Part shown: in pieces, positions 31,958 to 57,878 of the stretch
Layout: each line of letters starts with the position of its first letter
How positions within the stretch are numbered: the first letter of the stretch is position 1
Source: Gammaproteobacteria bacterium
GTDB lineage: Bacteria > Pseudomonadota > Gammaproteobacteria > Burkholderiales > JAHFRG01
Direction of reading: 5' to 3'
Length of the DNA stretch: 64,000 bases
Assembly (NCBI GenBank): GCA_041495205.1
Contig: JBGQCF010000001.1
Coordinates: 64,429-128,428 of the forward strand
Notes under the pieces: generated by a model
The model's input: the letters and a program-made list of their open reading frames with translations, nothing else
Told to the model about the DNA's origin: nothing
Databases searched by the model: none
Made by a program: the position numbers and the translations under genes

Positions 31958-31969
31958 ATTTTTATTTAC

Positions 31970-35800: not shown

Positions 35801-36055
35801 TCACCCCACCAATCCCCACCCCATCGGTGTTCCCTTTTTCACATCCCGATTCACCCGGCGGCCGAGGAGCATGTCGTAATATTTTGGCGCCAGTCCCATG
35901 CCCTGGCGGCGCTCAGGCAGCAGGCGACATGTGGCCGACCACAGGGAGACCGTCGCGCTTCGCATACCGCCTCGAAGAGCGCGTAGCCGAAAGATCTGTT
36001 GATTAGAAAGGACCCGGCGCAGTACGGCTTTCATTTTTCCACCGATTCCAGCCAT
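35801..36055 (-). pseudogene. 3' remnant (SAF-domain end) of a second NeuB-family ulosonic-acid synthase gene
   Basis: C-terminal GMGLAPKYYDMLLGRRVNRDVKKGTPMGWGLVG is identical at 28/33 positions to the C-terminus of the intact synthase at 38342..39385 (GMGLPPKYYEMLLGRRVNQDVKKGTPMRWELVG). Nucleotide similarity over 35801-35905 vs 38342-38446 is about three quarters by eye, and nothing upstream resembles the TIM-barrel part. Confidence 0.6.
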
Positions 36056-37699
36056 CTAAATGTGTGCCACCTTCAATTGAAAATTGACATGAGAACAAAG
36101 CCAGGCCTTAAGCTGGTCCGGCCCCGAGATAATAGGGATTCCATGGGCTGCCCTGTCATCGCTTTGCAAGTGACTGGTAGGATCATAATACACGGAAGGC
36201 TTGCCCAGCTCCCTGGCGATCAACGCCGTCGAAGTAAACGGCATGGAAATCACCGCGCAACTCGACTCGATAACCCGCAAGGCAGAGATTTCTGGTTCAA
36301 CCAACACAATGCCCCCTCGCTTGGATAGCCTGTCTGCGAAATGCCGGTATTGCGGATGCGCAATGTTGCCAATTCTTCGTTTGCGCTTCCACAACATAAC
36401 TACATCCAACTGGTGAGTGGCATCGGCAATGTGCTCCAGAAACCTTTCACTCGTGGCAGGAATGTAGAATTCGTAATCGGCACCCAATAAGCAGTAACTT
36501 GACAGCCTGTGAGGCGTGATATCGAAAACTGCCACTCCGGGCCTTTCTGGTTGTGGCATCTCGACGGCACTACTCTGGAAGTAGATCGGGCCGACGACGC
36601 TTACGTTAGCGCTCTCGCCGACGGCACGGCGGACGAAATCCGCTTGATACTCATCCCATACCAGATAGTGAGGCCAATTCATGGCCTGCCAGCCATACAT
36701 GAGTTTTGGGTAGCCATTTGGTCGCTTAAAAGATTCGCAATTAGTTGAGTAGAAATAAAAGGTGATCCGAGAACCATGCTTTTCCGCTTCGTACGTCCAG
36801 AGTGGCCGGTAGATCCAGCCCGAATTGTGGAACAGATAATCCCGAGCCAAACTGTTGGGCTCATACGTGCGTATCGTTTCGGCTAAAGATGCTTCGCCAA
36901 GCATAAGCGCATGCCACCAACGGCCGCGCAAAAGGTCGAAAACTGCAAGTGCACCTGACGCAATACTCCATCCAATGAAGCGCACCAATGCACCAATTTG
37001 AGTCAATGGCGAGATGGCTGATGGCACCGGGATTACGGGTATGCCGTCAACGGCACTCGGAGCGACACCCTCGACGCTGTGACATAGCGTATCGAGTTCA
37101 CCAATTCTGCCAGGCCATTGCTGATACCAGGTCACAATGTCGTGGCTGCGTCCGTCCTTGCAAGGCTGAGGCAGGTTATCCGCAGTGAGTGTGCCAAAAT
37201 ACGCAAACCTTCCTGGCGCTCGAAACGAGGGACGGATTATTTCCTTCACGCTGCCGGCAAGTCGCCTTGCGATTAACACCATCCCGTAAGCGAGAAACAA
37301 GGCAACAAAACCGTTCCACGCTAACGCCGACCGAATCTTTGCGACCTTGAAACCGTGCTGCTCGACAACTCGACGCCATTCAGGCGGCAGAGGGTGAACC
37401 ACATCGGAGCCAGGCTTTCCGAGCGCGTAGAGCAGTGCTTTATTGAGATTCAACCCACCCACACGAACCAACAGATACTGCCGGATGACAAGTTCCGCAT
37501 CCGTTAAGCCGGCGCCAAAAATGCGCTTTGAAGCGCGGCCCTTGCATTGGTTTAACCGGGTGTTTGTTAAAGCTTCTTTAACGGCCGTAATTCTGCCAAG
37601 TTGATTCGACACTTTCAGGGACCGATAGCCTCGCATCATGCGCCTAAGACGCCGGCGTCCCCTGCGTTGCAGTAAATCAGTAATCAAAGGTATTTTCAT
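36056..37699 (-). CDS. Uncharacterised polysaccharide-biosynthesis protein carrying a PFTS motif
   Basis: 547 aa. AVISMPFTSTALIARELGKPSVYYDP contains the PFTS motif that I recall as the name-giving feature of a RefSeq family ('polysaccharide biosynthesis PFTS motif protein'). Its biochemical role is unknown to me. Confidence 0.45.
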   Translation of the reverse strand: MKIPLITDLLQRRGRRRLRRMMRGYRSLKVSNQLGRITAVKEALTNTRLNQCKGRASKRIFGAGLTDAELVIRQYLLVRVGGLNLNKALLYALGKPGSDVVHPLPPEWRRVVEQHGFKVAKIRSALAWNGFVALFLAYGMVLIARRLAGSVKEIIRPSFRAPGRFAYFGTLTADNLPQPCKDGRSHDIVTWYQQWPGRIGELDTLCHSVEGVAPSAVDGIPVIPVPSAISPLTQIGALVRFIGWSIASGALAVFDLLRGRWWHALMLGEASLAETIRTYEPNSLARDYLFHNSGWIYRPLWTYEAEKHGSRITFYFYSTNCESFKRPNGYPKLMYGWQAMNWPHYLVWDEYQADFVRRAVGESANVSVVGPIYFQSSAVEMPQPERPGVAVFDITPHRLSSYCLLGADYEFYIPATSERFLEHIADATHQLDVVMLWKRKRRIGNIAHPQYRHFADRLSKRGGIVLVEPEISALRVIESSCAVISMPFTSTALIARELGKPSVYYDPTSHLQSDDRAAHGIPIISGPDQLKAWLCSHVNFQLKVAHI

Positions 37700-37744: not shown

Positions 37745-38332
37745 CTACGGTTCGTGGTTTTCAAGACGCCAGATCATGGTGAGTGCCCCAGACATAGGCT
37801 TCTGAATATGGGGAGTATCAGCCACGACAAACCCAACCTTCTCATATGCCTTCACGGCTGTAAGATTATCCTTACTAACGCCCAACAAAATCTGCCTGAT
37901 ACTGCGATGTTCCTTGAGCCATCGCGCGCTTGCATTGAGAACCTCTGCTGCTACCCCCTTGCTCCGATAGGCAGGGTCCCCAATCAACATACCCATGATG
38001 GCGTAGCCCAAGCCCGAGTTCACCGGTTCGTACTTGATATTGCCGATGTGCAGTCCGGAGGCCTTCTCGAAGATGCCGAGGAAAAGAATGTCGTCTCGCC
38101 CAATGCGCTCAAGCACATACTGCCTGAGATCAGAGAGTTTCCGCACTACTGTCGCAGCAGCAATGAACTTCTTGGATTCCGAATCACTTAGCCAATCGAG
38201 GTATCTTTGCGTGACATCCTTTTCGGTAAGCTCACGAAGCAGGAATCGTTCAGTGTTTATTTCAACCTTGGCAGTCATCTCACGAAGATATTCTATTGCC
38301 TGCTCAACACTGGCCGTCATGGTTAGACGCAA
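37745..38332 (-). CDS. GNAT-family N-acetyltransferase (RimJ/RimL-like)
   Basis: 195 aa. LRELTEKDV..., GDPAYRSKGVAAEVL (acetyl-CoA binding Q/RxxGxG/A-like block) and AYEKVGF. Confidence 0.7.
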   Translation of the reverse strand: MRLTMTASVEQAIEYLREMTAKVEINTERFLLRELTEKDVTQRYLDWLSDSESKKFIAAATVVRKLSDLRQYVLERIGRDDILFLGIFEKASGLHIGNIKYEPVNSGLGYAIMGMLIGDPAYRSKGVAAEVLNASARWLKEHRSIRQILLGVSKDNLTAVKAYEKVGFVVADTPHIQKPMSGALTMIWRLENHEP

Positions 38333-38341
38333 TCTAGCGCA

Positions 38342-39385
38342 CTACCCCACCAACTCCCACCTCATCGGTGTACCCTTCTTCACATCCTGATTTACTCGAC
38401 GTCCCAAAAGCATCTCGTAATACTTCGGTGGCAATCCCATCCCAGGACGCACACAGCGCAGATTCTCCAGTGTTAGCACCTCCCCTGCCTTGAGATCTGC
38501 TGCAATATAAATTGATCGCCGAAACACCAACGATTTCTTCTCAGCCTCGCTTGGACCATAGGTCACCTGCCCCAATGACTGCCATGCCCGTTCAGTCTCA
38601 ACCACCAGCGCACGCAGTTCCTCGGGTTCTAGCGAGAAGCTACTGTCTACGCCGCCATCGGCACGGCGCAGGGTGAAGTGTTTCTCGATGACCGTGGCAC
38701 CGTGGGCGACCGCCGCCACCGATGCACCCACTCCCATGGTGTGATCTGACAACCCCACTTCACAGTTGAACAGAGTGCGTAGGTGAGGAATGGTGAGCAC
38801 GTTGCTATCTTTTGCTGTAGCTGGATAGGTGCTGGTGCATTTGAGTAAAACAAGATCTCGGCAGCCGGCCTCGCGGGCGGCGCGCACGGCATCGTCGATT
38901 TCGGCCAGTGTCGCCATGCCGGTGGAGATGATCATCGGCTTACCGGTGGTCGCCACCTTTCGGATTAGCGGCAGATGTACGTTCTCGAACGACGCGATCT
39001 TGTAGGCGGGCACATCCAGCCCTTCGAGAAAATCGACCGCGCTTTCGTCGAACGGCGTGCTGAAGCAGAGCATGCCCCGTTCGCGCGCCCGCTGCATGAT
39101 GGGTAAATGCCATTCCCATGGAGTGTAGGCGAGCTTGTAGAGATCGTGCAGACTCTTGCCCTTCCAGAGGCTCTGCTCGTCATCGATGAAAAATTCGCCC
39201 TCTCGGACATCCAGGGTAATGGTATCCGCGGTAAAAGTCTGTAGCTTGAGGGCATGAGCGCCGGCCTTGGCTGCGGCCTCGACGATTTGCAGCGCCCGTT
39301 CAAGCGACTGGTTATGGTTGCCGGACATTTCCGCGATTACAAAAGGCGGCGCGTCGAGTCCGATCTTTCTTTCAGCTATTTGCAT
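38342..39385 (-). CDS. pseI: Pseudaminic acid synthase (NeuB family, PseI-type)
   Basis: The ORF-track start 39628 is an artefactual extension overlapping the upstream gene. ATG 39385 gives MQIAERKIGLDAPPFVIAEMSGNHNQSL. KLQTFTADTITL, SLWKGKSLHDLYKLAYTPWEWH (the insert I associate with PseI rather than NeuB/LegI), YKIASFEN and GLSDHT support the call, with a C-terminal SAF domain. Confidence 0.75.
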   Translation of the reverse strand: MQIAERKIGLDAPPFVIAEMSGNHNQSLERALQIVEAAAKAGAHALKLQTFTADTITLDVREGEFFIDDEQSLWKGKSLHDLYKLAYTPWEWHLPIMQRARERGMLCFSTPFDESAVDFLEGLDVPAYKIASFENVHLPLIRKVATTGKPMIISTGMATLAEIDDAVRAAREAGCRDLVLLKCTSTYPATAKDSNVLTIPHLRTLFNCEVGLSDHTMGVGASVAAVAHGATVIEKHFTLRRADGGVDSSFSLEPEELRALVVETERAWQSLGQVTYGPSEAEKKSLVFRRSIYIAADLKAGEVLTLENLRCVRPGMGLPPKYYEMLLGRRVNQDVKKGTPMRWELVG

Positions 39386-39396
39386 GGTCGTCCTGC

Positions 39397-40086
39397 CTAG
39401 CGTGAAATAAGCTTGCGTCCGAGGATGAAGGCTTCTGCCGCTTCCACGCCAACTGTCGCTCCGCGCCAGCGCGCCAGAGCTTCCACCGCCTGCAGCGATC
39501 GCGGATGGGGAAATTCCCGCAATTCGCCGGCATAGGCGCTGAGGGCGGAGCGCTTGATGTCCAGCGTGGCCGAAATATCCACAAAATAATTGGGCAGGAA
39601 AGGTTCCGCCGAGCCCGGAGGACGCCATTCCGTGGAGGACGGCACTTCGAAGAACAGCAACTCCTGAACCGGATGCCCGGGCTGCGGCCGGCAGGCGGCG
39701 ATTACGGCCTCATGCACCACTTGATGATCGATGTTCACATCGCCGGAGTGGTGAGTGAGCAGCGTTGACGGCCGGTATCGATCGATGAAACTTTCGATCT
39801 TCTTGACCACATCCAACAGGTCCAGCCCGTCGAGGCGGTTATCCGGCAAAGCCAGGCTTTCCACCGAAGCACAACCTAGGATACCGCAGGCGGCTTGTGC
39901 CGCCGCATTTCGCGCCGCCATTCGACCGACATCGCCTGAACTTGCAGCCTCCGGCGCCCTCGAGCCTTCCCCATCGGCCATAAGCAATACATGCACTGAG
40001 CGGCCCTCTTGCGCATAGCGGGCGATGGTTCCGCCGCAACCGAGCACTTCGTCATCTGGATGAGCCGCTACTATCAGGATAGACAT
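39397..40086 (-). CDS. PIG-L/LmbE-family N-deacetylase
   Basis: ILIVAAHPDDEVLGCGGT and HSGDVNIDH metal-binding motifs. Confidence 0.8.
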   Translation of the reverse strand: MSILIVAAHPDDEVLGCGGTIARYAQEGRSVHVLLMADGEGSRAPEAASSGDVGRMAARNAAAQAACGILGCASVESLALPDNRLDGLDLLDVVKKIESFIDRYRPSTLLTHHSGDVNIDHQVVHEAVIAACRPQPGHPVQELLFFEVPSSTEWRPPGSAEPFLPNYFVDISATLDIKRSALSAYAGELREFPHPRSLQAVEALARWRGATVGVEAAEAFILGRKLISR

Positions 40087-40089
40087 GAG

Positions 40090-40875
40090 CTAGTCCAATT
40101 TCGCCGTCAAAACGTTCCTGACAAGGTACGCGGAAATATTGCGTCCGAGGAGCGCGTCCCTCGACGCCACCAATCCCTGATGGGTGCCGCGACCCGTGTA
40201 TTTGATGGATTGGCCGTGCAGGTCGGTCAGGCGCCCTCCTGCCTCGGAAAGAATGAGTTCCGGCCCGGCAACATCCCAATCTCTAACCGGCACATCTTTG
40301 GCGAACGCGTCAGCCGAACCCTCGGCAACACGGCAAATCTTCAATCCCAGGCTTCCGCTTTCGATATATCCTTTGAATGACAAGTCGTTGTACACGCCAG
40401 CCGCCATCCCTCTGGGTTCAGGATAATTGTCAATCAACGTCAGACCCAGCGTCGTCTTGTATGGAAGCCGGCGACCATTCATGAACGCGCCAGAACCCCG
40501 GTTTGCAACAAACATCTCATCCGTGGCGGGCGCATAAACAACCGCAATCAGCGGTTCGCCATGGTCCATTAGGGCAAGCTGAGTGACATATCCGGAAAAA
40601 CCGGCAATGTAACTCGCAGTACCGTCGATCGGATCAATCAGCCAATAGCGCCCTTCGCGGAAATCAGGCGGCCCTCCCCGATCTTCCTCGCTGATTACAG
40701 GGTATTGGGTATGCAATCTGGACAACCCGGCGCAAATCATTTGATGCGCCCACTCGTCAGCCTTTGCGTGATACTGGGTGCCGTCCCACGACCCTTCGGC
40801 TCCACCGTCGGAAAGCCAGCCCCTAAGCGACGCGCCTACTTCGCGCATCATGCCGCTCAAGGCGTCAAGCATCAA
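40090..40875 (-). CDS. Inositol-monophosphatase / CysQ-family phosphatase
   Basis: ISEED, WLIDPIDGT and WDVAGPELIL are the IMPase-family metal-binding motifs. Confidence 0.75.
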   Translation of the reverse strand: MMLDALSGMMREVGASLRGWLSDGGAEGSWDGTQYHAKADEWAHQMICAGLSRLHTQYPVISEEDRGGPPDFREGRYWLIDPIDGTASYIAGFSGYVTQLALMDHGEPLIAVVYAPATDEMFVANRGSGAFMNGRRLPYKTTLGLTLIDNYPEPRGMAAGVYNDLSFKGYIESGSLGLKICRVAEGSADAFAKDVPVRDWDVAGPELILSEAGGRLTDLHGQSIKYTGRGTHQGLVASRDALLGRNISAYLVRNVLTAKLD

Positions 40876-41825
40876 ACCAACTCCTTAACCAGATTCATCT
40901 CATGACCTCTGATTGCCCCGATTTCAAAATCCTTCTGCTCGCGGGCACACTGTGCCAGCCACTCGGACTGGGGCGTCGGTTTCACGCCGGAGAACAAAAA
41001 CAAGTTCGATCCAGTGATATTCAACGCGCTTTCGCGCCACAAAGGTTCAATATCCAAATAGGCCGGCAATCGCTGCCGCAATATCTGCTCAGGGGCATCA
41101 ATCATGCATGGTTCTTTGCCCAATCCGGCAGAGATATCCCGAACCACTTGCCGAACCGCTATCCCCGCGTGGGGCAGGCACTCCCACATCACACGATCAT
41201 TTTCAAGCATTGATTGCAGACTTTCCACGATAGCACTGGATAGGTCCTCTACCCATGCAATTTGGGCAAGGTTCGTCCCGCCATTTACCAGGATAATGGG
41301 ATTGCCGTCCTGTATGCGATTGGCATAAAACGCCACGCGGCCGGTGTGATCATGGCTGCCCCAGAAGATTGGCAGCCTCAGGATTATTGCCTTACGTCCC
41401 TTTGATTGCTGAACATCAACCGCCCGCTCGGCTTCATTCTTCCCAAGCAGGTATTTCCGCGTGACAGGCAGAAGATTCTTCATCTTCTCATCTGCGGGAC
41501 GATCAATCAACTGGTCGGCGTCCCGGCTATGGCCCAACCGCGTCACCCACGTCGAAGAGATAAGAAAATAGGGGACTTTTGCGATACATCCAAGCGCTTC
41601 GCTTACGTCGAAAGAATCGTAGGCCAGGAAATCAAACACCGCATCGAATGCATCCGCTGACACGCTTCTCAAGCCCTGCGATCGTTCGGAGAGAACGCAT
41701 TTTATGCCGGTTGGCAAGTTGTCGCCGCGGCGCGATATCACCGTCACCTCTTGATTTTTGGACAAAAGTCTTCGAATTAGTGCTAACCCGAGGAGGCGGG
41801 TACCGCCGATAACCAACACCTTCAT
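40872..41825 (-). CDS. NAD-dependent epimerase/dehydratase-family protein (atypical SDR)
   Basis: MKVLVIGGTRLLGLALIRRLL Rossmann start. I recognised no clear YxxxK, so the function is uncertain. Confidence 0.55.
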   Translation of the reverse strand: MKVLVIGGTRLLGLALIRRLLSKNQEVTVISRRGDNLPTGIKCVLSERSQGLRSVSADAFDAVFDFLAYDSFDVSEALGCIAKVPYFLISSTWVTRLGHSRDADQLIDRPADEKMKNLLPVTRKYLLGKNEAERAVDVQQSKGRKAIILRLPIFWGSHDHTGRVAFYANRIQDGNPIILVNGGTNLAQIAWVEDLSSAIVESLQSMLENDRVMWECLPHAGIAVRQVVRDISAGLGKEPCMIDAPEQILRQRLPAYLDIEPLWRESALNITGSNLFLFSGVKPTPQSEWLAQCAREQKDFEIGAIRGHEMNLVKELV

Positions 41826-41829
41826 GTTG

Positions 41830-42879
41830 CTACGCTATGAATTCATTCAGCCACGTCCTTCTCAGCTTCAGGCCGTGCGAGAAAGACATGAGACCATCGG
41901 GCGCAGTCACTGAATCCTGCGACTCGCCCAAATAGACGGATACAAAATCGATGCCTGCGGCCAGCACCAAACACGCGGTCGTCGATATGCGCGGGTTTAT
42001 TTCGAACGGTTTCGCATCTCCCGCTCCAGTTTTCACGAGCTGGATGTTGTAACACCCCCCGACGGGTTGAGCTGCGTGAATTGCGGCACAGGAAGCGATC
42101 ACGCGTTCATCGTTATCCGTTTCCGCACGCAGGGTAATTCCACGCTTGATTCCGACCTTTACCGGGACGACGGCGCGCAATTTTCCCGCCCGGTCGGCGG
42201 CCATCATCACCGTATATTCCTGTCCCACAAGCAACTCCTGCAGGACGAACTCCTCCGGACGGCGACCGGAGAGAACGATATGCGCCTGCAATTCCTGTTC
42301 GGAGCGAACGATGGCAACGCCGCGCGAGCCTCGCCCCTGGCGTGGTTTGACGATGCACGGGAAGGGAATTTGCAGATGCCCGCTGAGCGGTTTGGTCTCC
42401 GGAACGGGCACACCGTGTCCCCGGAGAAGTGCGTTGGACGTCAATTTGTCAAGGTGGGCACTGACGAATGTAGCAGATGGAAGCAATACCTCGCATTTCA
42501 TTCCATCCCGCGCATTCGCAATGGGCAGCAGTTCCTCGTCAACGCCGGGGATAAGAAGGTCCGCTTCGATTTCACAGCACAGGCGCTGGAGTTCCCCGAC
42601 GAATGCGGGGGCGGACGCAAATGGTATCTGGTGCCACCGGTTCGATGCGATTGAATGGGGTTTGGCATCATTGTCGGCATCGGCAAAATGCACTTCGTAA
42701 CGCGCATCCAGCAAGCGGTTGAGCGCCTCGGTGCCAGCGCCGCCGCCACCGGTGAAAAGCAGTCTCTTGCTCGCGTTATCAGGAAACCGGCTGGCTACAA
42801 TGGTCGACACTGCCTTCCTTATCAATCCCAGGACCGCATCAAAGCGTAAGGCGATACGCGACGGCGCCCCGCGCCCCAT
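41830..42879 (-). CDS. ATP-grasp domain protein
   Basis: FPCIVKPRQGRGSRGVAIV, FVLQELLVGQEYTV and FEINPRISTT are ATP-grasp blocks. The start is uncertain because of a 41-nt overlap with the upstream gene. Confidence 0.7.
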   Translation of the reverse strand: MGRGAPSRIALRFDAVLGLIRKAVSTIVASRFPDNASKRLLFTGGGGAGTEALNRLLDARYEVHFADADNDAKPHSIASNRWHQIPFASAPAFVGELQRLCCEIEADLLIPGVDEELLPIANARDGMKCEVLLPSATFVSAHLDKLTSNALLRGHGVPVPETKPLSGHLQIPFPCIVKPRQGRGSRGVAIVRSEQELQAHIVLSGRRPEEFVLQELLVGQEYTVMMAADRAGKLRAVVPVKVGIKRGITLRAETDNDERVIASCAAIHAAQPVGGCYNIQLVKTGAGDAKPFEINPRISTTACLVLAAGIDFVSVYLGESQDSVTAPDGLMSFSHGLKLRRTWLNEFIA

Positions 42880-44416
42880 CCGGCATGCCTTCGAATCCCA
42901 AGGACTCGAAAACCTTGCGCGACGGATGATTGCCGCACTTCACCTGACCGGTTACCGAGGCGCCGGGCATGTCGCCGCGAAGCTTCAGCAAAGCCGCTTC
43001 GAGGATGCGGCGACCCAGGCCACGCCCGCGAAACACTTGCGCAAGCGAGTAATCGACTTTCCATGTGTGGTCCTGGCGCTCGAATCGCACCTGTCCGAGC
43101 GCAATACCATCAGTTGTCTCGATGATATAGAGACGGCATCCATCCGGGTTGCGCAAACGCTTCTGAAACCAGACGCGATGGCTTGCCGCGGGGATCGGCT
43201 CCGGCGAGAAAGCGTTGGCGCGAGTACTTGGGTCATTGGCCCACCTCAGCAACAGCGCCTCGTCTTCCAGCCTGGCGAGCCGTACCCGCAGCAGAGTGCT
43301 TTCCGTTACCGTCAGCGCCGCGCAAACGCGATCGACTCCGCTGCCGTCAACCGCGCCGCGACAGCGCAGGGACCAATTTTCATCCAGATCCCGTCGCAGG
43401 AGTTCGTCCAAGGCCTTGGCGATCGTCGGCTCATCCACTTCATCCCGGTTTCCCAGCCAGCGAATCAGGCCGCGTTGATGCAATTCGGCGGCGATGGGGC
43501 GCTGGTTCTCCGACAAGGTCACCACCAAAGCGGGCAACCCGAGGCATAGACGCTCCCAACTGGTCGCCCCGCCGGCGCCTATGGCCAGATCGGCCGCCAT
43601 CATTAGCGGCGCCAGGGATGGCAGGCCACTATGGAGGTGAACGTTCCCGTGCCCCGCCGCCTGCCGTCGTATCTCCGCAGTATGCGGACCGGCGGCATTG
43701 ATGACCGCATCGACCACAATGTCGGTCCGGTTGAGTTGCAGAAATGCGGCGAGGGCGCGACCCATCAGATTGTCGCTGTCGGCGCCGCTGAAAAAAATGA
43801 AAATCCGGCGGATCGGCCCTTCCCGCGGGGGAGTGCGATCACGCAGCTCCCCATAGGCGGGTTGCAGCAGAGCGTATTCCGGCCCCAGCAACAGGCTGCA
43901 CGCCGCAGGCACTTTGCCGGCGTAGCGAATGTCCATCTGCGCCACCAGGTTCTGGTCGAGGAGCAGGTCGCAGTCATGCACCCTGTCGGCCAGATCATCG
44001 ATCACCATGATGCGCTCAGCCGATGTTCGCAGGGCGCTTTCCCAGCGGGAGTCGATGGCGTAGTGGTCAACCACCAGCCAGTCGAGCTTTTTGCCCATGA
44101 ATTCGATAGCGGCGCTGGTTTGCTCAGCATCCTCCTGCCAAGTGGCTCCAAGCCAAGCTGCATGGGCGAGGGTGCCTTTGGCTTGCATTCCTGGCTTGGG
44201 TGCAGACAATCGGCTGACGGTGAAGCTCCGCTCCTCAATCAGGTTGCAGAGGTGACCGTCGTGCTCACGGCAGACGAAAGACACCACTGCACCGTGCTCA
44301 CGTAGCGCATCCGCCAGCGTCAGGGAACGCATGACGTGACCGCGACCAATGGTCAGGGATGCGTCAGTGCGTACAACGACATTAGTCACTCGACCCATGA
44401 GCTGCCCCAATCTCAA
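42839..44416 (-). CDS. pseG: Bifunctional PseG (UDP-2,4-diacetamido-2,4,6-trideoxy-L-altropyranose hydrolase) :: PseH-like GNAT acetyltransferase
   Basis: N-terminal VVRTDASLTIGRGHVMRSLTLADALREHG and GAGGATSWERLCLGLP fit PseG. The C-terminal ~165 aa (LRVRLARLEDEALLLRWANDPSTRANAF...RGRGLGRRILEAAL) is a GNAT domain, as in PseH. Confidence 0.8.
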   Translation of the reverse strand: MRLGQLMGRVTNVVVRTDASLTIGRGHVMRSLTLADALREHGAVVSFVCREHDGHLCNLIEERSFTVSRLSAPKPGMQAKGTLAHAAWLGATWQEDAEQTSAAIEFMGKKLDWLVVDHYAIDSRWESALRTSAERIMVIDDLADRVHDCDLLLDQNLVAQMDIRYAGKVPAACSLLLGPEYALLQPAYGELRDRTPPREGPIRRIFIFFSGADSDNLMGRALAAFLQLNRTDIVVDAVINAAGPHTAEIRRQAAGHGNVHLHSGLPSLAPLMMAADLAIGAGGATSWERLCLGLPALVVTLSENQRPIAAELHQRGLIRWLGNRDEVDEPTIAKALDELLRRDLDENWSLRCRGAVDGSGVDRVCAALTVTESTLLRVRLARLEDEALLLRWANDPSTRANAFSPEPIPAASHRVWFQKRLRNPDGCRLYIIETTDGIALGQVRFERQDHTWKVDYSLAQVFRGRGLGRRILEAALLKLRGDMPGASVTGQVKCGNHPSRKVFESLGFEGMPDGARGAVAYRLTL

Positions 44417-46440
44417 TTCAATCGTTTAAAACCGGCATGGCAGACCGGCCCTTTAAGCAGGTTCATGACGTCCCGCCCCTCCTCGCATTCCTTGATGAGT
44501 GCGAAAACGGGATCCAGCGCCTGGAAAAACTGCGCCACAACATCGGGAGTGTGTTCGGTGCACACATACACGCTTGTCCCGGCCAGATAACCCTTGGCCA
44601 GCATCTCCTGGGTGATCAGGGTTTTATACGCCGGCGCGTTGGGGCTGTTGAAAGAGAATCCGGTCAGCGCCGGCAAGCCGTTAGTGGTGATGGACAGTCC
44701 ATGCTTGCCGGCCAGGGCCTTCCATTTGGCGGTGATCTCCCGTCCGGTTTGGGTGATGTGTTCCCACGACTTGATGCGCTCCATGACTTCCAGCGTCTTG
44801 AGCGCCGCGCTCGGGCCGATACGTTCGGTCCAGAAGGTGCTGCTGATAAAAGTACTCTGTGCGGCTTCCATAACCGCACGTTTGCCGATGGCGGCAGTAA
44901 TGGCGTAGCCGTTGCCAAGCGCCTTGCCGAACATCGCCATGTCCGGCTCAACGCCGTAGAGCTTGTGCAGGCCGCCAAAGGTCTGGCGAAAACCGGACGT
45001 GCACTCGTCGAAGATCAGCACGATGCCTTTGTCGGTGGCGAGCTGCCTGACTTTTTCCAAAAAACCGTTCTCAGGGCCCACATTGCGCGAGACTTCCATC
45101 TTGATCACACCGATATCGTGGTCGCGCACCAGCATTTCCAACTCCGGAAAGTTGTTGTAGCTGAAAGGCAGCACGCTGCCGCGCAGGACCTGGGGTACGC
45201 CCTTGGGCTCCAGACCGGGCAGCAGATGACCGGCCAGATTTTGCTCGTCTCCCAGGTTGGCGGCCAGGTACCAATCGTGCCATCCGTGGTAGCCGCAGAT
45301 GGCGACCTTGTCGCGGCCCGAGGCGGCGCGAGCAATACGGATTGCGATGGCGTTTGCTTCGCCGCCTGAGCGTGCGAAGCGCGCCATATCCGCCCAAGGG
45401 TGCAGCGCAATCAGCTTTTCGGCCAGATAGACTTCTTCCGGGCAATTCAAGGTGGACATATTGCCGGCGGCGATGGTCTGGTGGACGGCCTCGTCCACTT
45501 CCGGATGGCCGTAACCCAGAATGTTGGTGCCGACGCCCATGATGGACATGTCGATGTATTCACGCCCGTCCAGATCCCACACACGGCAGCCCTTGGCCTT
45601 GCTGAAGTAGGCTGGCCACTGCTCGGGCAGAAACATTTCCGGCCGCTTGGAAAGCAGCATGTTGCCGCCGGGAATCACCCGCTTGGCGCGCTTCCAGAGT
45701 TTTTGTCCGGCGCCCAGAGTGGCTCCTTTGTTGCGGACGAGATGTTGGTTGGCCTGGAAGAGTGCCGGCCGTGCTTGGCGGAGCGCCAGCACTTCTTGCC
45801 AGCTAAAGTCGTTGCGCGGGTGGAAGTAGTTAAACACGGCAGCAATGACTTCAAAGTCCGCTGCTTCGTCGACCGTCCACCGCTCCATCGAGGGGTCTTC
45901 CTCATACGCAACGTTGCCGGTCTTGAACAGCCCGGACTCTCGAATGAAGGGCGTGACATGCTCGCGCTCGGCAGGTTTGGTCGCCTGCCGGGCTGCCTGT
46001 TCCAGCGCACGGAAGGAAAACACCTCCGTATCCAACCCGTCCGGGTAGGAGCGCGGCCACGTGTTGCTGAGGTAGTCGACGCCTTGCTCTTTGTGAGCGG
46101 CGATGACCAGATCGACCAGATCCGGGTCAATCAGCGGACAGTCGCCGGTAATGCGCACCACGGCTTCCGGCTGATGCGGCTTCGCGGCCTGGTAGAAGCG
46201 GTCCAGCACATCGTTTTCGCTGCCCTGAAAGACTTCGTAACCGAGACTGCGCACATGATCGGCCAAGGGCTGGTTCCGAGGATCATCCGAGGTAGCCAGG
46301 ATAATCCGGTCAATGCGCTTGGCCTTGGCCAGCCGACGCAGCAACAGCTCAATCATCGGCACGCCATTGATGGGGCGCATGACCTTGCCGGGAAAGCGAG
46401 TGGAACCCATGCGGGCCTGAACAATGGCAATGGTTTTCAT
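44413..46440 (-). CDS. Fusion: SpsF-like cytidylyltransferase domain :: class-III (glutamate-1-semialdehyde aminomutase-like) PLP aminotransferase
   Basis: N-terminal MKTIAIVQARMGSTRFPGKVMRPINGVPMIELL...RITGDCPLIDP is a CTP_transf_3 / SpsF-type domain. The C-terminal ~430 aa has GGNMLLSKRP, ARSGGEANAIAIRIARA, IFDECTSGFR and MFGKALGNGY (PLP lysine block) of class-III aminotransferases. Confidence 0.75.
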   Translation of the reverse strand: MKTIAIVQARMGSTRFPGKVMRPINGVPMIELLLRRLAKAKRIDRIILATSDDPRNQPLADHVRSLGYEVFQGSENDVLDRFYQAAKPHQPEAVVRITGDCPLIDPDLVDLVIAAHKEQGVDYLSNTWPRSYPDGLDTEVFSFRALEQAARQATKPAEREHVTPFIRESGLFKTGNVAYEEDPSMERWTVDEAADFEVIAAVFNYFHPRNDFSWQEVLALRQARPALFQANQHLVRNKGATLGAGQKLWKRAKRVIPGGNMLLSKRPEMFLPEQWPAYFSKAKGCRVWDLDGREYIDMSIMGVGTNILGYGHPEVDEAVHQTIAAGNMSTLNCPEEVYLAEKLIALHPWADMARFARSGGEANAIAIRIARAASGRDKVAICGYHGWHDWYLAANLGDEQNLAGHLLPGLEPKGVPQVLRGSVLPFSYNNFPELEMLVRDHDIGVIKMEVSRNVGPENGFLEKVRQLATDKGIVLIFDECTSGFRQTFGGLHKLYGVEPDMAMFGKALGNGYAITAAIGKRAVMEAAQSTFISSTFWTERIGPSAALKTLEVMERIKSWEHITQTGREITAKWKALAGKHGLSITTNGLPALTGFSFNSPNAPAYKTLITQEMLAKGYLAGTSVYVCTEHTPDVVAQFFQALDPVFALIKECEEGRDVMNLLKGPVCHAGFKRLN

Positions 46441-47303
46441 AGCGCAGCCCAGCGGGCGGGATTCAACAAATCGATGTCGTGGGTTTGCAATTCCCTGGGG
46501 ACTTGCGGCATCGGGCCTGCGATTGCCTGAAGAACCTCCTTGAGTTGCTTCAGGCTATCGACACCGATGATGACTTTAGTGATTTCCGAATACGATAAGG
46601 CGTAACGGAGACAGGCTTGCAATGGGGTCAGCTTGGAGTATGTCAGCCACTTTTCCAGGTTCGACCAGAGCGACGCCCACCGATTGAATTTTTTGGGGCG
46701 GTCGCTTGGTGTCATTAAAAGCAGCCCCTGGAGAAAAACCGACCGCGCGTGGAATTCTATGCCCCGCTCCGTCAGGCGAGGCAGCCAACCCGAATCGATC
46801 AAGCGGCGGTCCATGATGTTAAAAGGCGCCTGGACGATATCAAATTGATACCGGCTGCAGAGTGCGTCGAGTTCTGCGGGTTCGTAGATCGAAATGCCGA
46901 TTTTCCCGACAAGTCCGTCGCGTTTCAGTTGCTGCAAGACTTGGTGGAGCCTATCACCGTCTTGTTCCAGCAGCTGCTGCGGCCGGTGCAACAGAAGGCC
47001 GTACAGGCTTTTGATCTTCAGCCGTTGCAAGGAACTGCGGAGGGCATCTGCCACCCACTGAGAGACATCACTGCAAGCTTCCGGTACGGCCGGCAACTTC
47101 GACACGACCCGCCAGTCCGATATGCCGATCTCACCCAACCGCCTCTCGCTGTCGCCATACGCAATCGCCGTATCGAGCATCTCCATGCCGCTGGCCCTCG
47201 CATGACCGAGGATGGATTGGGCTTCTCCGTATAAAACCTGGCCTTGCTTGTTCGCGATGCCGTAATCGAGGCCAAACTGAACGGTGCCAAGGGCAAGCTT
47301 CAC
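46437..47303 (-). CDS. Aldo/keto reductase
   Basis: MKLALGTVQFGLDYG, LDTAIAYGDSE and GISIYEP fit the AKR family pattern. Confidence 0.75.
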   Translation of the reverse strand: MKLALGTVQFGLDYGIANKQGQVLYGEAQSILGHARASGMEMLDTAIAYGDSERRLGEIGISDWRVVSKLPAVPEACSDVSQWVADALRSSLQRLKIKSLYGLLLHRPQQLLEQDGDRLHQVLQQLKRDGLVGKIGISIYEPAELDALCSRYQFDIVQAPFNIMDRRLIDSGWLPRLTERGIEFHARSVFLQGLLLMTPSDRPKKFNRWASLWSNLEKWLTYSKLTPLQACLRYALSYSEITKVIIGVDSLKQLKEVLQAIAGPMPQVPRELQTHDIDLLNPARWAAL

Positions 47304-48472
47304 GCCAGCAGTCCCTTGAAAGCCCTGATGACATATTCCTGCTGGTCGTCCGTCAGGTCATAAAAAAGCGGAATGCTCAAGGCCTCCTGGTAATAGTTCC
47401 GGGCATTGGGATAATCCTCCGGCTTGAAACCCAGCCTGAGGTAATAGGGTTGGGCGGGCACCGGAATGAAATGCACCTGGGTTCCGACCTGCCGGGACTT
47501 GAGTTCCTGCATCAGTCGTCCCCGGCTCAGGCCCGCCGCTTTAAAATCAATTCGAAGCACATAAAGGTGGTGACCGCTCTGGTCGCGTCCCGCAACCTGG
47601 GCCGGACGACAATTGCGCATGCCGGAAAATGCCTTGTCGTATGCCTTGACGAGGTCGCGCCGGCGCGCAATGAACCTGTCGAGGTTTTTGAGCTGCGACA
47701 GCGCCAGGCCGCACTGGATGTCGGTGATGCGGTAGTTGAACCCCAGTTCCTGCATCTCGTAGTACCAGGGGGACTGCACGCCATCGGTTACGGCTTCCTC
47801 AGGTAATTGAAACGGATCGTCCAGTTTGTTGATGCCGTGGCTGCGCAAGCGTAAAAGTTTTCGGTAGGTGGGCTCGTCGTTAGTGGTGATCATGCCCCCC
47901 TCACCAGCCGCGATCGCCTTTACGGGGTGGAAGGAAAAGACCGTCATGAGCGAGTGCGCGCATGAGCCGACTCGCCGGCCGTCCGGGTACCGGGCGCCAA
48001 GGGCGTGGGCCGCGTCCTCAATCACGACAGCGCCTGCTTTATCGGCAGCCGATTTGATTGTGGGCATATCGCATGGCAAGCCGGCAAAATGAACGGGCAC
48101 CACCGCGCGAGCATCAGGATTTTTTGCAAGAGCCTCGTTGAGGCTGTCCGGGGAAATATTGACCGTATCGGGATCAATGTCCGCGAAGACCGGTCTTCCG
48201 CCGGCATAGAGCGCGGCATTTGCGCTGGCAACGAAGGTAACGGGCGAGGTGATCAGTGATGTGCCCGGGCCGACTCCAGCGGCCAGGGCGGCCAGATGCA
48301 GGCCGGCGGTGCCACTCGCCACCGCCACAGTAAATTTCACACCGACATACTCCGCCACGGCTCGCTCGAATCTCTCAATGGTTGGACCCTGGGTCAGCGC
48401 GCCGCTTCTCAGCACATCCACAACGGCCTGGATGTTTTCTTCATCGATATGATGTTTTCCGTATGGAATCAT
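47300..48472 (-). CDS. pseC: UDP-4-amino-4,6-dideoxy-N-acetyl-beta-L-altrosamine transaminase (DegT family, PseC-type)
   Basis: MIPYGKHHIDEENIQAVVDVLRSGALTQGPTIERFE and FSFHPVKAIAAGEGGMITTND (PLP-Lys) match my recollection of the PseC family signature. Confidence 0.8.
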   Translation of the reverse strand: MIPYGKHHIDEENIQAVVDVLRSGALTQGPTIERFERAVAEYVGVKFTVAVASGTAGLHLAALAAGVGPGTSLITSPVTFVASANAALYAGGRPVFADIDPDTVNISPDSLNEALAKNPDARAVVPVHFAGLPCDMPTIKSAADKAGAVVIEDAAHALGARYPDGRRVGSCAHSLMTVFSFHPVKAIAAGEGGMITTNDEPTYRKLLRLRSHGINKLDDPFQLPEEAVTDGVQSPWYYEMQELGFNYRITDIQCGLALSQLKNLDRFIARRRDLVKAYDKAFSGMRNCRPAQVAGRDQSGHHLYVLRIDFKAAGLSRGRLMQELKSRQVGTQVHFIPVPAQPYYLRLGFKPEDYPNARNYYQEALSIPLFYDLTDDQQEYVIRAFKGLLA

Positions 48473-49107
48473 AGATTCTGCACTTCACGGGCCAATCCGT
48501 TTTGCTCTTGCTGGTGAAGCCTTGCGATGTGCTCGTCAATTCCGCCGAGCTTTCTGCCCAGCACGCGGCAGGCTTTCCGGTTGGATAGGCTCATGTCCTG
48601 CGGCCGCCGGACCAATTCAGGGCGGTCGGCCAGGACCCCGAGCTTGATGCCACCGGGGGTAAGATTGAACCCTTCCGCGATCTTGAGCCCGAAATCGTAC
48701 TTTGAGATGCGCTCGTCCCCGACCACATGGAAGATGCCGCTGGCCTTGAGGCCGATCAGATCATGGACGGCTTGCGCCGCCGCCTCGATAAGGATCGGCG
48801 TGTAAAAGACATCTTTGAACAAGTTCAACTCTTTGCCCGAGCGGAGCGCGCCAACGATCACATCGCTGAACGAACGGCGATAGCTTGGCCCCCAACCATA
48901 GAAATTTGTGCGAACCACGAGGGATTGAGAATGAGCGTCAAGAACTCGACCCTCTGCTTCGGCTTTTGTCCGTCCATAGACATTTTTCGGTGCGACCAGG
49001 TGTGTTTCATTCACCAATGAAGCTTCCCCGGAGAACAAATGGTCCGTGGAGATATGCACCAGCGGCAATCCCAGCCTGGCACAGGCGCGCGCCACGTGGG
49101 CCGCCAA
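48469..49107 (-). pseudogene. 5'-truncated RmlD-fold reductase gene (lacks the Rossmann NAD-binding N-terminus)
   Basis: The 212 aa begin at (TTG)AAHVARACARLGLPLVHISTDHLFSG and align with residues ~95-308 of 22329..23255 (shared HISTDHLF, VRTNFxGWG, SFSD, TPIL, SGIFxxVGDERxSKYxF, RPxDMSL). The in-frame TAA of the upstream gene lies 2 codons before the first residue. Confidence 0.6.
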
Positions 49108-49113: not shown

Positions 49114-50484
49114 TTAATTCAGCAGGTCCACATGTTTGCGTAAGAATGCCGCTCCAATGCGCGCCTTGATTTCGCCTTCAGGATGGGTGGGCACGTGCTG
49201 ACGGACAATCTCCCAGAACCGTTGCTGCAATTCTTCATCTTCTTGCGTTGCCCGCCAAACGCCTTTAATGCGATCATCGACCTCTGCAGCTAAATCACGA
49301 ATTTCTTCTCGAGAGTTGCTGATTAGCTCGACACCTGCTGTTTCGAATGTTTGCGTATGGGTGGCATTTGCCACGCCAGCCACAAAAAGCTCGCGCAGGC
49401 TGAGCATACGTCCTTCTTCCTTATGCCAGGCACGCTTTAAAGTGAACGGAGTAGAGTTCCAATGATATACACTGTAAATCGTCTGTGGCCCGGAGAAGTT
49501 TACAAATGCGAAAGGTCGTTTGAATATTGTAGATACGGCAAATATTCCAGAATCGCTACCCAGATAGAATCGGCAATTACCAAGCAAATAAATGTCCGAA
49601 AAGTCGCCCCTCTCAACGTGATTTGCATAGTCGATCACCTTTGGATTGCTAGATACCAAAGGCTGCTCAGTAGATGACCCCATCCGCAAAACGTAATACC
49701 CCCTGCTTGCCAATTCCTCCGCACAGAGCGCCATACTTTGTACATCAAAATCACGGTACTTGTGATATTTCCAATCCATTCCGCTTTCCACCTGGTCGAG
49801 ATAAGCGCTGTCTCGATTGTGCAAACAGACCCATGACGCACCGATAGGAATACCGAGTCGTTCCAAAAGTTTTCTTCCCCGCGAATGCTCATCTTCAGTA
49901 AATTGAAGATGGGTATCAGTGTTTTCCAGAAAACAGAGATCTGTAGGGGGAAACGTGAGTCGATGTATATCGCCGCCGGTCCACAATTGACACGCTCTTT
50001 CCAGGGAGCCTATTAGCCCTGCGCACGGATATATACGGAAAGTTCTGGCAAACATGAGTCTTAGTTGCTGGTTACTGACCGCGCTCGAGCAGCCAATAAG
50101 ATCAAAAATACGGCGCTTGCGGCGCTCAACGTCGCGCAAACACAGATAACCTTCGGTGTTGCAAAGGTGCCCGATGCGGGAAGCATCTATTACACCAAGA
50201 CGAATCAAAATAAATGGCCGAGCGGCAACAATAAAAACCACTAAAGGCAGAAGCGCAAAGGCCTGTATCCAAGCGATGATTGCTCTCGCCGTCGGCCCTA
50301 TCATGCGACGCGTTTTGCGGATAATAACCGGCCACTCTACGGTTCTCATCCGGACACTCCACGGCGCACAAAAACAAATGTGCCAAGCACCTGCCCGCCC
50401 ATAAGCATTAGGCGCACCCGCATCAAAATCAGATCTCGCAACGAAAGATAGAGCTGATCGACCGCACCGCCGAGGTGTTTGCAA
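49114..50484 (-). CDS. Putative glycosyltransferase of an uncharacterised family (paralogue of 57879..59411)
   Basis: Shared blocks with 57879..59411: W(V/F)xLHxRD(S/A)xY, Y(R)xxD(V/I)xS, RGGY/RGYYV(L/I)R(M/V)G and F(Y/V)(L/V)G(S/V)(D/S)SG. I recall a RefSeq 'TIGR04372 family glycosyltransferase' with this look, but that is unverified. The true start is probably Met-46 (50349) or later. Confidence 0.5.
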   Translation of the reverse strand: MQTPRRCGRSALSFVARSDFDAGAPNAYGRAGAWHICFCAPWSVRMRTVEWPVIIRKTRRMIGPTARAIIAWIQAFALLPLVVFIVAARPFILIRLGVIDASRIGHLCNTEGYLCLRDVERRKRRIFDLIGCSSAVSNQQLRLMFARTFRIYPCAGLIGSLERACQLWTGGDIHRLTFPPTDLCFLENTDTHLQFTEDEHSRGRKLLERLGIPIGASWVCLHNRDSAYLDQVESGMDWKYHKYRDFDVQSMALCAEELASRGYYVLRMGSSTEQPLVSSNPKVIDYANHVERGDFSDIYLLGNCRFYLGSDSGIFAVSTIFKRPFAFVNFSGPQTIYSVYHWNSTPFTLKRAWHKEEGRMLSLRELFVAGVANATHTQTFETAGVELISNSREEIRDLAAEVDDRIKGVWRATQEDEELQQRFWEIVRQHVPTHPEGEIKARIGAAFLRKHVDLLN

Positions 50485-54531: not shown

Positions 54532-54540
54532 TAGATTTTT

Positions 54541-56273: not shown

Positions 56274-56282
56274 TAAGAGTGT

Positions 56283-57155: not shown

Positions 57156-57158
57156 GAA

Positions 57159-57866: not shown

Positions 57867-57878
57867 AAATTGATTTTT

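Follow-up and report, generated by a model that had tools for sequence, protein, structure and literature searches.

What would a pseudaminic acid (Pse) operon make when six further enzymes are interleaved with its core genes? The question is raised by a 64,000-nucleotide stretch of DNA from a Gammaproteobacteria bacterium (contig JBGQCF010000001.1; hereinafter the window), which carries ten translationally coupled genes on its minus strand at 38342-48472. An earlier note on this DNA had recognized pseI, pseG::pseH and pseC there (a double colon denotes a fusion). It had read the interleaved genes as one system for derivatizing Pse, encoding a PIG-L de-N-acetylase, an inositol monophosphatase (IMPase)-family phosphatase, a short-chain dehydrogenase/reductase (SDR), an ATP-grasp enzyme, a cytidylyltransferase (CT)::class-III aminotransferase fusion, and an aldo/keto reductase (AKR). 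The open reading frame (ORF) list, together with Pfam and NCBIfam scans at curated equivalog cut-offs, confirms the named genes and their minus-strand positions (Table 1).

Nonulosonic acids cap bacterial surface glycans, and their variants alter charge, serotype, and the way in which phages and the immune system recognize them. According to a study of Tannerella, the genes behind most N-acyl and side-chain variants of these sugars are unassigned (PMC5378307).

The accessory genes do not form the single system first supposed. They constitute two independent modules, each of which is common elsewhere: block A, comprising the AKR and the CT::aminotransferase fusion, and block B, comprising the ATP-grasp enzyme, the SDR, the IMPase-family phosphatase, and the PIG-L protein. 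The modules are independent because they occur separately, block A in loci L001 and L003, and block B in loci L008, L062, and L063, where it stands with bona fide PseB, PseC, PseF, and PseH and without AKR or aminotransferase. The operon very likely makes a derivative of Pse and not plain Pse5Ac7Ac. Our fuller reading, in which the Pse core, block A, and block B together make a CMP-activated, derivatized Pse for a large O-antigen- or capsule-type polysaccharide, is tentative and falls somewhat short of an even chance. The observation itself is real and partly explained, one module having a characterized relative (EpaA/EpaB) and the other being uncharacterized.

Organization of the operon

Every long ORF between 36 and 50.5 kb lies on the minus strand, and none of the ten operon genes is disrupted, either as an ORF or in its catalytic motifs. 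Coupling by 4-nt overlaps and 3-11-nt gaps, as described earlier, is borne out by the ORF coordinates. Specifically, 4-nt overlaps join RmlD-like to PseC, PseC to AKR, AKR to the fusion, and SDR to IMPase; the ATP-grasp/SDR junction is a 4-nt gap, the IMPase/PIG-L junction is a 3-nt gap, and 11 nt containing an AGGA box separate the PIG-L stop from the PseI start. The PseI ORF as listed (38342-39628) is over-extended, the gene beginning at the ATG behind that AGGA box. Recurrence in dozens of unrelated genomes puts the arrangement far beyond chance. Across 33.5-51.5 kb, promoter-like and terminator-like signals show no excess over background, and scans of the whole window returned no tRNA genes and no Rfam matches.

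Table 1. Features of the Pse region in 5'-to-3' order
Feature	Coordinates	Strand	Length	Family evidence or remark
5'-truncated RmlD-like reductase remnant	48469..49107	-	212 aa	RmlD_sub_bind model positions 83-283 only
PseC, UDP-4-amino-4,6-dideoxy-N-acetyl-beta-L-altrosamine transaminase	47300..48472	-	390 aa	TIGR03588 478.6 bits, cut-off 423.5
AKR (block A)	46437..47303	-	288 aa	PF00248 Aldo_ket_red 99 bits
SpsF-like CT (~1-240)::class-III GSA-aminomutase-like aminotransferase (~244-675) (block A)	44413..46440	-	675 aa	CTP_transf_3 114.6 bits, Aminotran_3 135.2 bits
PseG (UDP-sugar hydrolase)::GNAT N-acyltransferase	42839..44398	-	519 aa	TIGR03590 287.3 bits, cut-off 153.6
ATP-grasp carboxylate-amine-ligase-like enzyme (block B)	41830..42879	-	349-aa ORF	ATPgrasp_Ter, ATP-grasp_3
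Extended-type SDR, subtype 1 (block B)	40872..41825	-	317 aa	Weak Epimerase match
IMPase-family phosphatase (block B)	40090..40875	-	261 aa	PF00459 Inositol_P 143 bits, gathering 27
PIG-L/LmbE-family de-N-acetylase (block B)	39397..40086	-	229 aa	PF02585 108.5 bits, gathering 28.2
PseI, pseudaminic acid synthase	38342..39385	-	347 aa from ATG at 39385	TIGR03586 502.1 bits, cut-off 340.3
Second GNAT (GNAT2)	37745..38332	-	up to 195 aa	PF13302 Acetyltransf_3 54.3 bits; 9 nt past PseI
PFTS-motif polysaccharide biosynthesis protein	36056..37699	-		TIGR04417 380.8 bits, cut-off 100
3' remnant of a second pseI allele	35804..35908	-	~100 nt	33 aa plus own stop; 83% aa and 80% nt identity to the pseI end

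Block A and its probable target, C8

The AKR of block A has the D43/Y48/K69/H105 tetrad, and the fusion protein retains both IVQARMGSTRFPGKV (the CT N-terminal motif) and the pyridoxal phosphate lysine in FGKALGNG. Homologues of the 675-aa fusion, at 76-94% identity, are found in Nitrospirota, Desulfuromonadales, and Pseudomonadota. The fixed order PseB-(RmlD-like)-PseC-AKR-CT::aminotransferase-PseG::GNAT-slot-PseI occurs without block B in Desulfuromonadales, Pseudomonadota, and Steroidobacter. The slot between PseG::GNAT and PseI is empty in a metagenome-assembled genome (MAG) of Desulfuromonadales and holds a small ORF or a formyltransferase in another lineage.

As reported earlier, the operon has no canonical PseF. 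Neither the CT domain (23.7 bits) nor the KdsB-like protein at 25951-26721 (29.6 bits) comes near the TIGR03584 cut-off of 205.7 bits, which the true PseF proteins of L008 and L062 exceed (351.6 and 318.6 bits). Both low-scoring proteins had been put forward as substitutes, and one of them survives. A role of the CT domain as the CMP-Pse synthetase replacing PseF is supported by the comparison of loci, because SpsF-like CTs, present in 27 loci, and PseF-like CTs, present in 16, are nearly mutually exclusive, occurring together in 4. AKR adjoins the SpsF-like CT in 16 of the 27 loci, and stand-alone SpsF-like CTs exist in some loci. The genetics of Bacillus subtilis agree, in that spsF is required there for legionaminic acid (Leg) transfer, not for its synthesis (PMC7439481), and a similar suggestion has been made for an SpsF-like CT::AKR of Vibrio B9-25K2 (PMC7371886). 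The KdsB-like protein was rejected as an unlikely PseF substitute: it passes a KdsB subfamily cut-off (213 vs 193 bits), and its gene belongs to another cassette, along with those for an AroB-related cyclase, a SIS isomerase, and MocA dehydrogenases.

Block A points to C8 chemistry rather than N-acyl chemistry, because its pair of CT and AKR has a characterized relative. EpaA (CTP_transf_3::Aldo_ket_red) and EpaB (an adh_short SDR), described in 2025, convert Pse5Ac7Ac to 8-epi-Pse5Ac7Ac in vivo, as established by nuclear magnetic resonance (PMC12053666). Among the collected loci, the partner of CT plus AKR is either an EpaB-like SDR (L014, L035, L064, and L065) or a class-III aminotransferase (13 loci including the window), and never both. 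An EpaB-like adh_short protein is absent from the operon, the only match in the window being a weak one in another cassette (31241-31957, 56 bits). A search for an EpaA relative in a phage collection returned only unrelated AKRs at 23-25% identity.

The simplest inference is that both flavours pass via a C8 ketone, which the aminotransferase flavour would resolve to an amine. Judged by domain content, not by sequence alignment, block A would be the amino-flavoured sibling of EpaA/EpaB. Specifically, the AKR and the aminotransferase would carry out redox and transamination on the nonulosonate side chain, with C8 as the most likely target by analogy with EpaA/EpaB, to give an 8-amino or otherwise C8-modified Pse. 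A Pse-like sugar of this kind, 8-amino-3,5,7,8,9-pentadeoxy-manno-nonulosonate, is known from Tenacibaculum maritimum (PMC3210612); the paper on that O-antigen assigns no gene to it.

Some block A loci contain a divergent extra NeuB-like protein (116-151 bits vs cut-offs of 340-400), which does not occur in the window. It is encoded separately, between AKR and CT, or forms the N-terminal part of a fusion with the SpsF-like CT (~600 aa), and it is found in L029 (4034-5035), L034 (4259-5278), L014 (4106-5911), L036, and L041.

The Pse core and its missing steps

The canonical Pse pathway of Campylobacter and Helicobacter proceeds through PseB, PseC, PseH, PseG, PseI, and PseF. In the NCBIfam scan for these six that the earlier note had proposed, PseC, PseG, and PseI pass their cut-offs and PseB, PseF, and PseH are not reached. 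PseC scores 372 bits on DegT_DnrJ_EryC1 and is 90% identical to its counterpart in a Nitrospiraceae MAG (L024). PseI scores only 295.9 bits on the NeuB_NnaB model and is 85% identical to the PseI of L062. The PseG::GNAT fusion starts at the ATG at 44398, as in the 519-aa call from identical contigs; its ORF reaches a TTG at 44416.

The pseH half of the pseG::pseH assignment did not hold up. The fused GNAT (Acetyltransf_3, 56.8 bits) scores 21.6-24.7 bits on the PseH model (TIGR03585, cut-off 93.1), and GNAT2 scores 16.4 bits; the true PseH of L008 scores 122.8 bits. A PseH-like role of the fused GNAT is plausible from gene context, because it is the only GNAT in the otherwise canonical operon of L062. 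GNAT2 is 86% identical to its L024 counterpart, and its relatives flank Pse genes in L021, L029, L034, L040, and L042; it is possibly a capping N-acetyltransferase. The PFTS protein trails Pse clusters in L003, L009, L024, L029, and L034 and is a candidate for Pse transfer or polymerization.

No protein in the whole window reaches the PseB cut-off (TIGR03589, 407.8 bits). The best score is 301.4 bits (6393-7460), and the true PseB of L003 scores 535.7 bits. The earlier note was silent on this absence, as it was on the truncated RmlD-like gene. The ORF at 6393-7460 (-) encodes a 355-aa Polysacc_synt_2 protein, which scores 245 vs 730 bits on FnlA and adjoins another RmlD-like gene at 7457-8353. 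A 626-aa WbpM/PglF-like protein at 2521-4401 (-) scores 187 bits on the PseB model, and the two are the sole PseB-like dehydratases of the window. The product of one or the other may feed PseC in trans.

In the proposed pathway, PseC would aminate the 4-keto sugar, with PseB activity supplied from elsewhere. The PseG::GNAT fusion would N-acylate N4 and free the hexose from UDP, PseI would condense the hexose with phosphoenolpyruvate, and the CT domain would act as the CMP-Pse synthetase in the place of PseF.

Block B as a candidate deacetylation and re-acylation route

Block B was compared across 51 loci from a scan with the ATP-grasp alignment, one genome per species, to which others were added from look-ups in metagenome and genome contigs. 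In the 42 loci with a close ATP-grasp relative, neighbours were counted within 7 kb, several loci being cut by contig ends. Of the 42 loci, 36 have PseG, 34 a NeuB-family synthase, 33 an SDR, 32 an IMPase, and 30 PIG-L; the complete block B set of four genes is found in 27. The hosts of block B comprise Geomonas, Steroidobacter, Sulfuritalea, Thauera, Devosia, Prochlorococcus and other cyanobacteria, Verrucomicrobiota, Actinomycetota, and the archaeon Methanospirillum. The ATP-grasp protein alone has homologues in 155 cluster representatives at E≤1e-30.

The conserved core of the ATP-grasp enzyme begins at about residue 36. In its AlphaFold2 model (pLDDT 82), residues 1-35 are disordered. K178, E215, and E293/N295, which correspond to the conserved Lys and the Glu-x-Asn Mg/ATP residues, are invariant. 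Foldseek matches the model to 2pn1 (an uncharacterized CPS-like protein), L-amino-acid ligases, PylC, PurK, and Ddl, with probability 1.0 for 2pn1, the L-amino-acid ligases, PylC, and Ddl; the modelled fold is nearest to that of carboxylate-amine ligases. No characterized ATP-grasp subfamily is reached (PRK12767, 125 vs 218 bits).

The other three enzymes are likewise intact members of their families. In the SDR, GGTRLLG (a GxxGxxG-like motif), S90, and Y125xxxK129 (S..YxxxK) are invariant in 29 homologues, and the AlphaFold2 model has a pLDDT of 94.7. The IMPase retains the motifs ISEED, LIDPIDGT, and WDVAGPELILSEAGG (WDxAG) and falls below the equivalog cut-offs of CysQ (126 vs 229 bits), HisN, and SuhB. 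The PIG-L protein has the AHPDDE zinc/base motif at residues 8-13, with H..DH downstream, and falls below those of BshB1 (82.6 vs 182.5 bits), BshB2, MshB, and Mca. A sequence search of solved structures with the four proteins returned only remote generic relatives. We found no paper assigning block B in the literature that joins pseudaminic or legionaminic acid with ATP-grasp, LmbE, PIG-L, or inositol monophosphatase.

The association of deacetylase and ligase extends beyond the Pse genes. Among distant ATP-grasp relatives (27-32% identity), 14 of 15 loci keep PIG-L nearby, including loci that lack nonulosonate genes, and therefore the deacetylase and the ligase are the conserved couple. Where nonulosonate genes are lacking, the pairs adjoin GT4 or GT2 glycosyltransferases. 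Domain fusions found elsewhere (PseH-like GNAT::ATP-grasp, formyltransferase::ATP-grasp, PseG..formyltransferase::ATP-grasp, and ATP-grasp::extended SDR) argue that the ATP-grasp enzyme works beside the N4/N7-acylating step and together with an SDR; the SDR in the ATP-grasp::SDR fusions is of another kind (RmlD-like, subtype-2). Thus the pairing of deacetylase and ATP-grasp enzyme made in the earlier note is strongly backed by neighbourhoods and fusions; its simple deacetylation and re-acylation logic leaves the obligatory phosphatase and the SDR unexplained.

Other apparent fusions were set aside. A NeuB::SDR fusion in L010 was rejected as a Rosetta stone: its NeuB part is without the C-terminus and its SDR part without the NAD-binding N-terminus, a deletion-like arrangement. 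The long 'fusions' in L033, L037, L040, and L042 are ORF over-extensions of separate genes.

The phosphatase of block B is replaceable in family. In two distant variants, L064 and L065, an unrelated Metallophos (PPP-type) phosphoesterase fills the IMPase slot between SDR and PIG-L, and in an Asgard archaeon (L053) a HAD phosphatase lies in the gene cluster with the distant ATP-grasp/PIG-L pair. This displacement argues that phosphoester hydrolysis is an obligatory step of block B.

These comparisons support ATP-dependent re-acylation after deacetylation as the candidate activities of block B. N4 of the UDP-sugar (N7 of Pse) would be acylated by the GNAT or a formyltransferase, so that PIG-L would most economically strip the GlcNAc-derived N-acetyl group at N2 (N5 of Pse). 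The ATP-grasp enzyme would then re-acylate the freed amine with a carboxylic acid, probably a phosphate-bearing one, the IMPase-family phosphatase would remove the phosphate after ligation, and the SDR would set the oxidation level of the newly added group or of its precursor. The universal presence of a phosphatase suggests such a phosphorylated acid by analogy with Campylobacter jejuni, where the amidoligase Cj1438C ligates a phosphorylated building block that the phosphatase Cj1435 then dephosphorylates (PMC11800397).

Three genes lie downstream of PIG-L in L015, L016, L025, and L027: an ORF of 320-337 aa, a gene for a long (428-482 aa) DegT-type aminotransferase, and one for a GNAT2-like acetyltransferase. 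The trio looks like a means to add a further acetamido group.

The genomic setting of the distant pairs also bears on another explanation, in which PIG-L and ATP-grasp act not on Pse but on a different residue of GlcNAc type in the repeat unit, for instance while it is lipid-linked, and their position in a Pse operon reflects co-regulation. GlcNAc glycosides are the classical substrates of the PIG-L family (MshB, BshB, and PIG-L), and distant pairs adjoin GT4 (WecA/MraY-like) or GT2 enzymes in loci with no nonulosonate genes (L055, L057, and L053). We regard this explanation as quite improbable, in view of the tight linkage to PseG and NeuB (34-36 of the 42 loci, across phyla), the covalent joining to PseG, PseH-like GNAT, and formyltransferase domains, and the exchange of block B together with PseG::GNAT and PseI as one cassette.

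Weighing the proposed pathway

Several points weigh against our reading of the operon as a source of N-acyl- and C8-modified Pse. The ATP-grasp gene stands without PIG-L or phosphatase in L017-L023, L031, and L041 (Kiritimatiellota/Verrucomicrobiota), and the structural neighbours of its product include carboxylases (PurK and biotin carboxylase), not ligases alone. Most block B loci embed a NeuB-family synthase that is not PseI-like (NeuB_NnaB 349-357 vs PseI 289-299 bits), which could reflect an altered sugar backbone rather than an altered acyl group. Deacetylation and re-acylation need neither an SDR nor a phosphatase, and the phosphorylated acid is an idea by analogy. The substrates, the order of steps, the nitrogen, the acid, and the C8 target are inferred, and block B may act on the UDP-sugar, the free hexose, Pse, or CMP-Pse. 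Because AKRs usually reduce carbonyls, block A could also run in reverse, from amine through ketone to alcohol. Finally, with no PseB passing its cut-off and the RmlD-like gene truncated, the completeness of the pathway in the window is not proven.

The embedded synthases, encoded after the ATP-grasp gene (L009, L015, L024, and most other block B loci), form a distinct clade, scoring 253-357 bits on NeuB_NnaB and 213-299 bits on PseI and passing neither cut-off; true PseI occurs with block B only in the window and in L062 (502 and 496 bits). They are the starting point of an explanation in which block B remodels the sugar backbone to give a different nonulosonate isomer or an amine-bearing nonulosonate. 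Here the ATP-grasp enzyme would phosphorylate or otherwise activate an intermediate, the SDR would epimerize or reduce it, the phosphatase would dephosphorylate it, and PIG-L would leave a free amine. Such a scheme fits a synthase nearer to NeuB/LegI than to PseI in most loci, the existence of ATP-grasp::SDR fusions, and an obligatory phosphatase displaced across three families. It also fits the CMP-nonulosonates with a free amine of Kuenenia (bioRxiv 10.64898/2026.04.20.719630) and the established SDR-based epimerization of nonulosonates (EpaB/AciE). We nevertheless consider backbone remodelling unlikely. The window and L062 retain bona fide PseI, and this fold class of ATP-grasp enzymes comprises ligases and carboxylases rather than sugar kinases. 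Distant ATP-grasp/PIG-L pairs last with no NeuB, SDR, or IMPase nearby, as fits a deacetylase-to-ligase couple, and the fusions to N4-acyltransferases (GNAT and formyltransferase) favour amine acylation.

Within the preferred reading of a derivatized Pse, the most specific product would be an 8-amino-8-deoxy (5,7,8-triamino) Pse, formed through a C8 ketone by the AKR and the aminotransferase, with a non-acetyl acyl group placed on N5 by the four-enzyme route of block B. In this exact form it is rather doubtful. The four-enzyme route would be a previously undescribed one, and gene sets have so far been assigned to neither modification.

Mosaic history of the operon

The genes flanking the block B cassette have their closest relatives in the Nitrospiraceae MAG (L024), with 82-91% identity. 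Specifically, DNA identity with L024 is 86% over 49097-44413, from the RmlD-like gene to the stop of the fusion gene, and 85% over 38278-35909, which covers GNAT2 and the PFTS gene. The intervening 6.1 kb, from PseG::GNAT to PseI, has almost no DNA similarity to L024 and 32-62% protein identity; the L024 counterpart has another gene order and a non-PseI synthase. This 6.1-kb cassette is closest to that of L062, which lies within a canonical PseB/PseC/PseF operon (PseG 73%, GNAT 67%, ATP-grasp 70%, SDR 59%, IMPase 67%, PIG-L 79%, and PseI 85%). The window is, by these alignments, a mosaic into which the 6.1-kb cassette was swapped as a unit, and the slot from PseG/H to PseI behaves as an exchangeable serotype-type cassette. 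G+C content is 0.55-0.61 over the Pse operon (38001-48000; Pse block 0.57-0.61) vs 0.47-0.55 in the rest of the locus, which fits lateral acquisition of the block.

Both edges of the region carry marks of exchange. Compared with L024, whose copy is intact (304 aa), the RmlD-like gene has lost 365 bp by deletion. About 95 N-terminal codons, including the NAD-binding motif, are gone, and the remnant abuts the stop of an upstream TIGR04372 glycosyltransferase gene. At the other edge, between the PFTS gene and a methyltransferase gene, the pseI remnant starts exactly where similarity to L024 ends. The deletion and the remnant are two scars, the remnant being one of recombination.

Could the pathway be decaying, so that the operon makes plain Pse5Ac7Ac or nothing and the accessory genes are dispensable passengers? 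The lack of a cut-off-passing PseB in 64 kb, the 365-bp deletion, and the pseI remnant as a recombination scar are what decay would leave. However, the ten operon ORFs and their catalytic motifs are intact, the proteins are strongly conserved across phyla, and the close relative L024 keeps the whole set, likewise without an adjacent PseB. In addition, the PseB/FnlA-like dehydratase (6393-7460, 301 bits) and the WbpM-like enzyme lie within the locus. Decay is a very improbable account, slightly less likely than action on another residue.

The surrounding polysaccharide locus

The entire 64-kb window is a single polysaccharide locus. It also encodes a Wzx-type flippase, Wzy/O-antigen-ligase-like proteins, many GT2 and GT4 enzymes, several C-methyltransferases, and members of the O-antigen-cluster families TIGR04372 (two), TIGR04417, and TIGR04326, whose label derives from Leptospira LIC13510. 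The TIGR04372-family glycosyltransferases, at 49114-50484 and 57879-59411 (-), score 188 and 221 bits vs 45, and the TIGR04326 'LIC13510' surface-carbohydrate protein at 23263-25161 (-) scores 538 bits vs 250. These two families and the PFTS family are poorly characterized.

A second cassette occupies 25951-33611 (-). It encodes a TIGR04425 AroB-related cyclizing phospholyase (471 bits, cut-off 400), a GmhA-like SIS isomerase, an adh_short SDR, two GFO/MocA dehydrogenases, a HisC/CobD-like aminotransferase, a 2-hydroxyacid dehydrogenase, and the KdsB-family cytidylyltransferase (213 bits vs 193), followed by a methyltransferase and the TIGR04326 protein. It looks like a route to a CMP-activated carbocyclic or aminated sugar acid. 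The genes of another modified sugar form a further run at 52191-63943 (-), which encodes four zinc-ribbon proteins of the C-methyltransferase type (Methyltransf_13/14), two hexapeptide acyltransferases, and one each of a DegT aminotransferase, SDR, NUDIX hydrolase, and GFO/MocA protein.

Implications

Among environmental bacteria and archaea both modules are common, and the window is one mosaic example, not a unique system. Block B, found in dozens of genomes spanning phyla, is a candidate general route for swapping the GlcNAc-derived N-acetyl group. Block A is a candidate route to 8-amino nonulosonates, which are known chemically and have no known genes. If these roles are true, glycan structures could be better predicted from genomes, and enzymes for rare CMP-sugars would become available.

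Comparison with known systems

The operon shares with the canonical Pse pathway its operon logic, its origin from UDP-GlcNAc, and PseC, PseG, and PseI that are bona fide by NCBIfam equivalog cut-offs. It differs in having neither PseB nor PseF, in its six interleaved enzymes, and in leaving the PseH role to a PseG-fused GNAT that fails the PseH model.

A parallel to the order of chemistry proposed for block B exists in thiol biosynthesis. Mycothiol and bacillithiol are made with a phosphatase, a PIG-L deacetylase (MshB/BshB), an ATP-dependent ligase, and, as a cap, the GNAT MshD. In both cases a PIG-L protein would unmask a GlcNAc-derived amine, an acid would be ligated to it at the expense of ATP, and a GNAT would cap the product, the GNAT in the window being GNAT2, past PseI. 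In contrast, the ligase of the window is an ATP-grasp enzyme, not MshC/BshC, its substrate would be a nonulosonate intermediate, and its PIG-L protein is far under the BshB1, BshB2, and MshB cut-offs (82.6 vs 182.5 bits and lower).

The Cj1437/Cj1438C/Cj1435 system of the C. jejuni HS:2 capsule resembles the chemistry proposed for block B in that an ATP-dependent amidoligase has a dedicated phosphatase and the phosphorylated building block is attached through an amide bond before dephosphorylation. There, however, the sugar is the carboxylate donor, with serinol-P or ethanolamine-P as the amine; the phosphatase belongs to the HAD family, the reaction takes place on the growing polymer, and no deacetylase takes part. 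An ATP-grasp protein of Shewanella, SfmE, contributes to a nonulosonate-type flagellin glycan (PMC3765264).

In Kuenenia stuttgartiensis, a Leg-like cluster contains a deacetylase and a formyltransferase, and CMP-nonulosonates with a free amine and with a formyl group were detected (bioRxiv 10.64898/2026.04.20.719630). As in the window, a deacetylase and an N-acylating enzyme lie between aminotransferase and NeuB genes, and modification precedes incorporation into the glycan. The Kuenenia pathway differs in being Leg-type and in re-acylating with a formyltransferase, not an ATP-grasp enzyme; no SDR or phosphatase is reported for it, and the family of its deacetylase is not stated.

For block A, the SpsF systems of B. 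subtilis and Vibrio B9-25K2 are similar in that a non-NeuA CT stands in as CMP-nonulosonate synthetase, with an SpsG/PseG-like hydrolase in the cluster; here the sugar is Pse instead of Leg, and the CT forms one protein with an aminotransferase. The EpaA/EpaB pair, which comes from prophages of Acinetobacter baumannii, differs from block A in domain arrangement, since the CT of the window is fused to a class-III aminotransferase and its AKR is a separate gene with a 4-nt overlap. In addition, no protein of the window other than the CT is a candidate CMP-Pse synthetase. The two systems are alike in combining CTP_transf_3 with an aldo/keto reductase, in being tied to Pse genes, and in having a second enzyme that would handle the presumed keto intermediate.

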